DNA of 62,666 nt, filler included, from Pseudomonadota bacterium (lineage in GTDB: Bacteria > Pseudomonadota > Alphaproteobacteria > Paracaedibacterales > CAIOTO01), in NCBI GenBank assembly GCA_040387495.1. It is 4 parts of 3 records of this genome, joined end to end, with 100 filler letters (N's around TTAATTAATTAA, not from the genome) between each part and the next. Parts side by side here need not be neighbours in the genome. Positions count along the whole stretch, not along the records: positions 21,389 to 49,100 come from JAZKDQ010000013.1; 3 more parts are not named here. One strand, 5' to 3'. The notes beneath the pieces are model-generated. The model did not search any database. It was not told where the DNA came from and was given only the letters and a program-made list of their open reading frames with translations. This document shows positions 43,493 to 45,004 of this stretch, one piece after another (the stretch's first letter is position 1; each line of letters starts with the position of its first letter). The position numbers and the translations under genes were made by a program.

Positions 43493-45004
43493 ATGAAAAT
43501 ATTTAAAATTATCTCCTACCTTTCGATTGCCCTCCTTTTTGACATTCGTACGGACGTCCATGCGATAACTATGGAAGCCATCTTTATTGAGCAAGATGGG
43601 TCACCCATTACTGATTCAGAAAAATTTCATCAAACTAACGACATCTATCGTGACCTACAATATGAAGCTATCTATGGCGCAGGAGTGCCTAATTTTCCAG
43701 AACAACTAAATCAAAACTTTGCTACAGCAGATCTCGATATTAAAGTCATTTATTTGCCAGCAAGTTTATACCAATTCCTTTCTATCTCATTGATTAATAA
43801 ATTTAATCCTATTTTTTCAGGATTTTTTACCAATGAAGGATCACACAACATTCATTATAAGTACAATCTTAAACATTGCTTTGAAACAGATAATCTTTCA
43901 GAGTGTTACAAGAAAATTTCAGAATTTACAAAGAATAAAGAAAACTCAAACCTAAAAAGGATAGTAGATAATTTTATTCTCCAGGAACATCCTACTATTG
44001 CAGATAATCTTGATGATCAAGAAGATTTAATTTCTTTGGTTGTAGAAAAAATTTTGAATAAAAAATACAATTACGCACTCCATCATTTCGCCCTGCGTCA
44101 ACACCCAATGCAAAACGTAAAAGACATACTTGTAAAAGTTTCTTTAATTGAAAGAGAAGCCTTCATAAACAATAAGGTTTTATTAATGCGAGGAATAACA
44201 CCTTTAAGAAACAAAGCCGCAAAAGGCCTTCAAGATACAATTATTAACATAGACCCTTTTAACGACTTGTTTGAACAAAACACCATACGCTCGCTCTCTT
44301 TTGGATCACGATATTTTTCTAGCCTACTATCCGGCGAGTGTGCCTGTGTGCTCCATTATTTCAACGTTCAAAGTCCAGACAATGCCCTATACATAATAAC
44401 TTTACAGATGCCTCTTGACGAAAAAACTAAGTCAACATATTATTACCCACCACTAACTAGCCTAGTTGACTTAATGGGCTATGGAGAAATTTTCCATCCC
44501 AGATCAAGACCTTCAAAAAATCATTTTGAACCAGAAGGCTTTGATTTTTCGAGTTATTCAGAGCCTTTAATAATGAAAGCTCTTCAGTCTCCTTATAATT
44601 TACAAGAATTAACAAAAGCACATCATTCCACAATTGCAAACAATTTAGTTCTTTTCCAACCAGGATTTTATTTCACAGGAAATCTAGATGATGAAAAAGA
44701 GAAACTCAAAAAGATAAACGGAGAATTTGCAGAGAATTTGTCTGATTTTTTCGAGCATGGTAAAATATATTTAGGTACAACCCAAAGAATAGAAGAAGAA
44801 GAGGCTCGCGCCAAACACGAGGAACCTTTTAATAAATTACATTTATTAAAGAAAGAAAATGAACAAAAACTGAAAGAAAATGAACAAAAACTGAAAGAAA
44901 GTGAACAAAAACTGTTAGAGCTTAAAGAGGCACTTAGATTGACGCAGGCAAGAGCCTCTCTGGAAGAGGAAGCTCAAAAAAATTCTTTCTGCGTAATTTC
45001 ATAA
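43493..45004 (+). CDS. Hypothetical secreted coiled-coil protein ending in a CaaX box (CVIS)
   Basis: 503 aa with signal-like N-terminus, C-terminal coiled coil with KENEQKL repeats, ending ...NSFCVIS*. Confidence 0.7.
   Translation: MKIFKIISYLSIALLFDIRTDVHAITMEAIFIEQDGSPITDSEKFHQTNDIYRDLQYEAIYGAGVPNFPEQLNQNFATADLDIKVIYLPASLYQFLSISLINKFNPIFSGFFTNEGSHNIHYKYNLKHCFETDNLSECYKKISEFTKNKENSNLKRIVDNFILQEHPTIADNLDDQEDLISLVVEKILNKKYNYALHHFALRQHPMQNVKDILVKVSLIEREAFINNKVLLMRGITPLRNKAAKGLQDTIINIDPFNDLFEQNTIRSLSFGSRYFSSLLSGECACVLHYFNVQSPDNALYIITLQMPLDEKTKSTYYYPPLTSLVDLMGYGEIFHPRSRPSKNHFEPEGFDFSSYSEPLIMKALQSPYNLQELTKAHHSTIANNLVLFQPGFYFTGNLDDEKEKLKKINGEFAENLSDFFEHGKIYLGTTQRIEEEEARAKHEEPFNKLHLLKKENEQKLKENEQKLKESEQKLLELKEALRLTQARASLEEEAQKNSFCVIS
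44851..44914 (+). repeat. 21-bp coding tandem repeat, three copies
   Basis: GAAAGAAAATGAACAAAAACT x2 plus GAAAGAAAGTGAACAAAAACT, encoding heptad KENEQKL. Confidence 0.95.

Follow-up and report, generated by a model that had tools for sequence, protein, structure and literature searches.

A putatively Sec-exported protein of a probably intracellular alphaproteobacterium ends in a canonical CaaX box that may have arisen by chance

Is a bacterial protein that ends in the residues Cys-Val-Ile-Ser destined for the farnesyltransferase of a eukaryotic host, or is such an ending an accident? The question is raised by an open reading frame (ORF) at positions 43493..45004 (+) of a 62,666-nucleotide stretch of DNA, here called the window, from an alphaproteobacterium of the Paracaedibacterales (assembly GCA_040387495.1). 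The window consists of C13:1 to about 25000, C13:88901-113000, part of C19, C20:1-9129 and 264 N, where C denotes a contig, and distances across the joins are meaningless. The ORF noted in the original prediction is present as a single frame, encodes 503 amino acids followed by a stop codon and corresponds to G000:C13:107393-108904 in the producer genome (G000). It had been described as an orphan secreted coiled-coil protein and interpreted as an effector anchored to host membranes by farnesylation. The observation proves mostly right; the interpretation as a farnesylated effector is possible but unsupported by the sequence tests. On balance, and with modest confidence, we favour an accessory enzyme that is exported and carries a young tail, built by slippage, with an accidental CVIS end.

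According to this reading, the protein would be a Sec-exported, species-specific member of an unannotated family and most likely an enzyme that leaves the bacterium and has its target in the host or at the interface with it. The 400-residue domain would, in this species, have gained a helical tail that changes fast, is highly charged, arose in part by slippage of a 21-bp repeat and ends in CVIS by chance. Farnesylation would occur if and only if the protein reaches the host cytosol with an intact C-terminus. The ORF, its signal peptide, the family with its conserved residues, the repeat-bearing tail, the CaaX counts at chance level and the producer's gene content for intracellular life are observed; that the protein is an enzyme, that it passes the outer membrane and that the box is incidental are the parts of this account that we infer.

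The C-terminal ending was confirmed by direct reading. The terminal codons TGC GTA ATT TCA TAA at 44990..45004 (+) encode C500-V-I-S503 and the stop, which makes a canonical CaaX box with X = Ser, as farnesyltransferase prefers it. The genome-wide frequency of such endings, which the original prediction had named as a check, was determined in 1382 ORFs without mutual overlap, each 100 residues or longer, obtained by a crude call (1791 before overlap filtering). A strict C-[AVILM]-[AVILM]-X is found at the true end of 2 of these ORFs, with 2.0 expected from composition, and the same tripeptide occurs 0-5 times at 29 control offsets (mean 2.0). The second strict ending is CLIF, the end of a membrane protein. 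Cys at position -4 is found in 20 of the 1382 ORFs versus 17.2 expected. The CaaX count is at chance level, and there is no enrichment among the 233 ORFs with a signal-peptide-like start, which hold one of the two strict endings (P=0.31) and two of eight relaxed ones (P=0.40). Should the box be incidental, the case would illustrate that chance alone supplies one canonical CaaX ending in a small genome. Beside this count, a 102-residue ORF at G000:C4:42968-43276 (-) (L027:1469-1777) combines a signal-peptide-like start with a disordered, Lys/Glu-rich body and the end KGCCSIQ, a second CaaX-like end with an adjacent Cys. This ORF is a candidate gene only, has no relative in 20 related genomes and was not used as support.

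Relatives of the protein were collected by sequence searches at two depths. A word-based search of 5.8 billion clusters returned a sole relative, P0001 (494 aa, 95-98% identical), which was also the only protein among the matches listed when residues 25-425 or the profile of alignment A1 were used as query. With phmmer, 29 proteins were found among 1.84 billion representatives at E<=1e-3, four of them at E<=1e-10. P0020, a repeat protein with a 30-residue match only, was dropped from the family, and A1 comprises the 30 sequences of the query, the remaining 28 phmmer proteins and the homologue from genome G015. The designation as an orphan therefore needs qualification: the protein has one close relative and none in Pfam, NCBIfam, PHROGs or the PDB, but a diverged family of phmmer matches exists. 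Neither the word-based nor the phmmer searches yielded relatives with identities between 35% and 95%, and the 5.8 billion clusters contain no intermediates from which selection on the CaaX box could be judged.

Within this family the terminal Cys is not conserved. Among 32 members, which are the 30 rows of A1 and the proteins of genomes G006 and G012, Cys at -4 occurs in two, the query and its twin P0001. The other 30 have no Cys at this position, and most of them lack the whole tail; P0008 ends in a Cys at -1. Query and P0001 differ, by eye, at about ten positions in 500 residues, and at this divergence of about 2% retention of four residues is expected without selection. Homologues without Cys at -4, which the original prediction had named as evidence that would speak against farnesylation, were thus found, but this argument is a weak one because the tail is lineage-specific. 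On present evidence the CaaX box appears to be a young, unconserved feature at chance frequency. No RNA run was among the sequencing runs listed for the gene. Contigs from four other sequencing runs contain only pieces of it at low depth; one that matches 44927-45060 without differences comes from the same study as the probable source and is no independent evidence on the Cys codon.

The tail that carries the box spans residues 432-501 (44786..44995, +), is composed to 47% of D, E, K and R and is predicted by AlphaFold to form one long helix. It contains a 21-bp tandem repeat at 44851..44914 (+) with 3.0 copies and 97% matches, which encodes heptads of the ENEQKLK type. The tail is missing from P0002 (35% identical, 437 aa) as well as from most family members, and P0001 differs from the query by a 7-residue deletion, equal to one repeat unit, and a 5-residue deletion. 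A heptad-repeat coiled coil had been proposed for this region. Heptad periodicity and a long predicted helix are indeed present; however, each heptad offers a single hydrophobic position (Leu), and the hydrophobic occupancy of a and d positions in the best 28-residue window (0.62) is reached by 548 of 2000 tail shuffles. The residue pattern is that of a heptad periodicity that appears to lack a classical coiled-coil seam; besides a coiled coil, a lone charged helix or a weak coil would be equally likely.

The part of the protein common to the family is a globular alpha/beta domain of about residues 25-425 (43565..44767, +). With the 30-sequence alignment, AlphaFold2 predicted one such domain followed by the single helix 432-501 (mean pLDDT 80.5, pTM 0.78); the model from the single sequence was poor. 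The view that this domain belongs to no known family was borne out, as no relevant family was found in any member with Pfam, NCBIfam or PHROGs and the family profile has no match to PDB sequences at E<=10. A structure search, also suggested at the outset, gave no match for the core, with no Foldseek hits at E<=1e-3 in PDB or BFVD; in VIA-align the lists were filled by the long tail helix and the core was barely covered. Invariant in A1 are R233, S269, A284, G331, H335 and R337, and P89, L231, G234, S267, G277, D281, F316, P319 and E332 are kept in at least 90% of the sequences. Arg233 (44189..44191, +) closes a predicted strand in the motif L-L-[YFMLW]-R-G, S267-x-S269 is encoded at 44291..44299 (+) and G-E332-x-x-H335-x-R337 at 44486..44503 (+). 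Taken together, R233, S267, S269, D281, E332, H335 and R337 look like a catalytic or ligand-binding site, and because of these fixed polar residues the protein is most likely an enzyme acting on the host or at the host interface.

The family is patchily distributed. Its profile is present in 4 of 62 genomes of the order, the producer included, and in none of 400 other sampled genomes of the phylum. A search with the query protein found the gene in none of six same-genus genomes; the profile search additionally detected a diverged 627-residue paralogue in G006. Among genome contigs, a single-protein search found no related locus and a search with the subfamily alignment A3 found two records of metagenome-assembled genomes (MAGs). 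The members that could be placed belong to this intracellular alphaproteobacterial order, to two small-genome uncultured bacteria and to one chlamydial MAG, where P0024 is named a hypothetical protein.

At the N-terminus, the signal-like sequence noted in the original prediction is present (MKIFKIISYLSIALLFDIRTDVHA). It corresponds to a Sec-type signal peptide of residues 1-24 (43493..43564, +) with a putative cleavage site after V-H-A, assigned without a dedicated predictor. Similar hydrophobic stretches, ending just before the first conserved strand, are found in 24 of the 30 aligned members; three members have internal membrane segments and three, which may be fragments, show neither feature. 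Of those with internal segments, P0028 carries one, and P0024 and P0026 carry a two-lobed hydrophobic segment of about 55 residues in place of the signal peptide. A two-lobed N-terminal hydrophobic segment of about 40-60 residues is the hallmark of the chlamydial inclusion membrane (Inc) proteins, which sit in a host-derived membrane. P0024 and P0026 resemble these proteins in carrying the family domain behind such a segment, and their Inc status is deduced from sequence only; the protein of the window differs in its cleavable-looking signal peptide with a single hydrophobic core of 9-11 residues. By itself, a two-segment membrane hairpin would mean a domain that stays in the cytoplasm of the bacterium; the versions with a signal peptide would export it. 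These topologies can be reconciled only if the hairpin versions lie in a membrane of host origin and the domain works outside the bacterium, and this comparison is probably the best argument for a host-facing family.

The foremost alternative is that the protein is a host-farnesylated effector after all, which we consider less likely than not. After Sec export and release, the host farnesyltransferase would modify Cys500, -VIS would be removed and the Cys methylated, and the charged helix would hold the enzymatic domain off the host membrane. Several points weigh in this direction and against a box without meaning. CVIS is a fully canonical farnesyltransferase box and no loose look-alike. It is identical to the box of transducin gamma-1 (GNGT1), a eukaryotic G-protein subunit that is otherwise dissimilar, and the identity claimed by the original prediction is corroborated by the relevant entry in Table 1 of PMC7674641, where the GNGT1 box CVIS carries a C15 prenyl group and is an ICMT substrate. 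Once in the cytosol, a protein with this box would probably be modified, irrespective of whether the box was selected. In P0001 the last 13 residues, and with them the box, are identical despite the two deletions just upstream. The C-terminal tails of the family are in general variable, and those of other members hint, by their composition, at host-targeting add-ons; in 7 of 30 members the net charge over the last 30 residues is at least +4. The Inc-like members P0024 and P0026 suggest that the family domain faces the host cytosol. Likewise, P0010 has two PPPVPPR motifs in its last 60 residues, which look like eukaryotic SH3-domain ligands and are a further hint of host-targeting tails in this family. 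Finally, an obligate intracellular life of the producer is very probable and would place it inside eukaryotic cells, where a farnesyltransferase is present.

The intracellular life of the producer is deduced because its genome is small and encodes TLC ATP/ADP translocases. The assembly comprises 1.66 Mb in 20 contigs, is 99.9% complete and carries the gene on C13. Four matches to the translocase were obtained, of which two are full-length without stops, a third is interrupted by an in-frame TAA and the fourth is a fragment; 14 control genomes gave no match. The match with the TAA inside (G000:C8:54749-56164, +) is one of two adjoining translocase genes and may be a pseudogene or a split gene. 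Every described species of the Paracaedibacteraceae entered in Table 1 of PMC11909080 is given there as a dweller of the host cytoplasm, which counts in favour of the effector only if the genome belongs to this family.

Against farnesylation in the host stand, besides the chance-level count without enrichment in exported ORFs and the restriction of the Cys to two near-identical proteins, the immediate surroundings of the box and the question of delivery. Upstream of the box the residues are EEEAQKNSF, with neither a polybasic stretch nor a second Cys beside it. The N-terminus is a Sec signal peptide rather than a signal for type IV or type III secretion, VirB4 has no match in the producer genome, and no route across the outer membrane was found. 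The genome has one secretin (Secretin_N_2 type, on C1) and one T2SSE ATPase with an MshEN domain (58498-60222, -), a PilB/MshE-like protein of 574 residues; both look pilus-type and suggest, by their domain content, a type IV pilus-like machine in this intracellular bacterium. The genome also encodes a type VI secretion system, represented by VgrG (53486-56386, -) and by TssC on C6, and no link between it and the CVIS gene was found. Sec-exported proteins are not known as cargo of this system. In PMC11909080, a review of the Holosporales, a type VI system is described as conserved in almost all genomes of the group and as no more than a candidate for delivery. For uncultured alphaproteobacterial symbionts of protists neither an effector nor a route into the host is established. 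Apart from the question of export, the VgrG protein (966 residues) has the domains Phage_GPD, Phage_base_V and gp5 C-terminal, followed by a Lys-rich C-terminal extension of about 160 residues with a weak match to the histone-like HC2 (E 6e-5, below the cut-off), and may be an evolved VgrG with an effector or DNA-binding-like tail.

Known bacterial proteins provide precedents for the effector interpretation, with differences in each case. Salmonella SifA is a comparable CaaX effector. The Legionella pneumophila proteins AnkB and PelA, C, D, E, H, I and K ("CMPs") resemble the protein of the window in that they come from an intracellular bacterium and combine a canonical C-terminal CaaX box with otherwise unrelated domains. 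They are described, in PMC13081727 and PMC2916131, as type IV injected, with host farnesyltransferase, RCE1 and ICMT acting on the box; the seven Pel effectors need the CaaX Cys for vacuole localisation (PMC13081727) and AnkB likewise depends on it (PMC2916131). In contrast, the protein of the window has a Sec signal, comes from a genome without a VirB4 match, shares its Cys with just one of the other 31 family members and is known here from sequence alone. Salmonella GtgE is, according to PMC13423502, an effector enzyme whose CaaX box raises host-membrane association; it differs in its type III secretion and belongs to another enzyme family. A literature search found no paper combining 'CaaX' and 'Holosporales', and a search on CaaX, endosymbiont, prenylation and secreted listed none that, judged by title and abstract, deals with effectors of such symbionts. 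If the box is used, the hijacking of host prenylation would extend from a few gammaproteobacterial pathogens to uncultured alphaproteobacterial symbionts of protists. The protein would then be the first effector of this host-prenylated kind from a genus other than Legionella and Salmonella and the first that is exported by Sec, and it would offer a snapshot of the birth of a CaaX box on a slippage-prone tail.

A more elaborate version of this view can be drawn, which we consider speculative and rather doubtful as a whole. The producer would be a cytoplasmic, Holosporales-type symbiont of a protist and the protein a Sec-released enzyme of an undescribed family, shared with chlamydial inclusion-membrane proteins, that was newly given a repeat-built spacer helix and a farnesylation box and is tethered by host enzymes to membranes of the host.

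As to the activity of the conserved domain, a divergent R-S-E ADP-ribosyltransferase (ART) was considered, in which R233 and S267-x-S269 would bind NAD+ and E332 would be catalytic. We treat this as a tentative lead only and regard it as improbable on the evidence at hand; it is compatible with either view of the CaaX box. The motifs of R-S-E ARTs are aromatic-Arg-Gly/Ala at the end of strand 1, Ser-Thr-Ser and [Gln/Glu]-x-Glu. With the PF03496 (C3/VIP2/ExoS-type), NarE, Lart1 and pertussis S1/Scabin-like enzymes the family shares the order of Arg, Ser-x-Ser and Glu and a hydrophobic-aromatic-Arg-Gly motif. Order and spacing fit (R233, 34 residues, S267-x-S269, 63 residues, E332), and R233 is found in 30 of 30 members, in the L-L-[YFMLW]-R-G motif within the predicted strand 228-235. 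Among the 30 nearest clusters of a language-model feature search were NarE (0.88), Lart1 (0.88), Pertussis_S1/Scabin-like (0.87) and DUF7587/Scabin/Pertussis_S1 (0.86), all of them below the bar of 0.9. PF03496 was detected in 8 of 401 sampled genomes, and 15 of its domains, taken from 11 loci, were compared with the family by hhalign. Exactly the two Arg motifs were aligned, but the match covers 13 columns with a probability of 0.4-0.5% and a P of 0.13-0.17 and is not significant.

Other comparisons likewise gave no significant profile or fold match to ARTs. No ART family is among the Pfam matches of the 30 members at E<=0.1, the family profile had no PDB sequence match even at E<=10, and no ART is among the best 50 of 152 Foldseek matches in PDB or the best 50 of 179 in BFVD. 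A second atlas search with the relative P0019 gave no usable match. PF21641 (NarE) was found in none of the 401 genomes, and the control genomes also had no match. The motif [E/Q]-x-E is present in all 15 PF03496 domains fetched and missing from the family of the window, where the position two before E332 varies (Y, K, Q, S, R, L and others), and E332 lies in a short helical turn of the model and not at the start of a strand. S267-x-S269 lies within S-[LI]-S-[FY]-G, unlike the serine motif of the 15 domains, which reads [FY]-x-S-T-S. Finally, the invariant His335 and Arg337 are extra relative to ARTs, which have no equivalents of these residues. The fixed polar constellation indicates, from its conservation, an enzyme or a ligand pocket, which is a safer statement than an ART.

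A further alternative, in which the protein is an envelope component of the bacterium itself, periplasmic or surface-bound and out of reach of host enzymes, with the tail as a spacer or self-association helix and CVIS meaningless, is unlikely. The Sec signal peptide, the lack of a recognised outer-membrane route and the chance level of CaaX endings would suit it. However, the relatives with a double membrane segment would retain the domain in the cytoplasm of the bacterium unless they are inserted into a membrane of host origin, which fits poorly with a periplasmic role of the family, and a patchy family in a variable locus is more usual for accessory genes of host interaction than for envelope housekeeping. 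Irrespective of the role of the box, the exported accessory enzyme that we favour belongs to an unannotated, enzyme-like family of patchy occurrence in intracellular bacteria that is defined here. With its signal-peptide and Inc-like versions and its interchangeable C-terminal tails, this family is a reasonable target for structural and biochemical work.

The GC content of the gene is low for its genome, 33.5% against an ORF mean of 40.0 +/- 4.1% (6.6th percentile). An inverted repeat with 9-bp arms and a 10-nt loop (45029..45056) was read directly 25 bp past the stop and is possibly, judged by its position, a shared terminator of two convergent genes. It is not among the results of the terminator scan, which had a loop limit of 8 and required a T run; in promoter and terminator scans of the surroundings, neither end of the gene scored above the shuffles. 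The CtrA box TTAA-N7-TTAA is absent upstream of the gene, and the nearest of its eight matches in the window are at 23338 and 48882. Downstream and convergent lies a flagellar cluster with a DUF6468 gene, in which the ORF 46813..48309 is, by visual inspection alone, a FliM candidate.

The upstream neighbours are genes for a dicarboxylate symporter, a 313-residue exported orphan and atpC. The orphan (41881-42822, +) has a signal-peptide-like start, no Pfam family and a GC content of 33.7%, and two species-specific exported orphans thus flank atpC, one per side. In the same-genus genomes G001 and G003 the symporter directly precedes atpC, the 313-residue orphan is missing and unrelated genes come after atpC. 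The locus next to atpC is a variable spot. After atpC in G003 follows a 327-residue ORF (L035:3140-4123, -) with (A/V)QG(L/V/M) repeats near its C-terminus, and the position therefore holds different cargo in each species.

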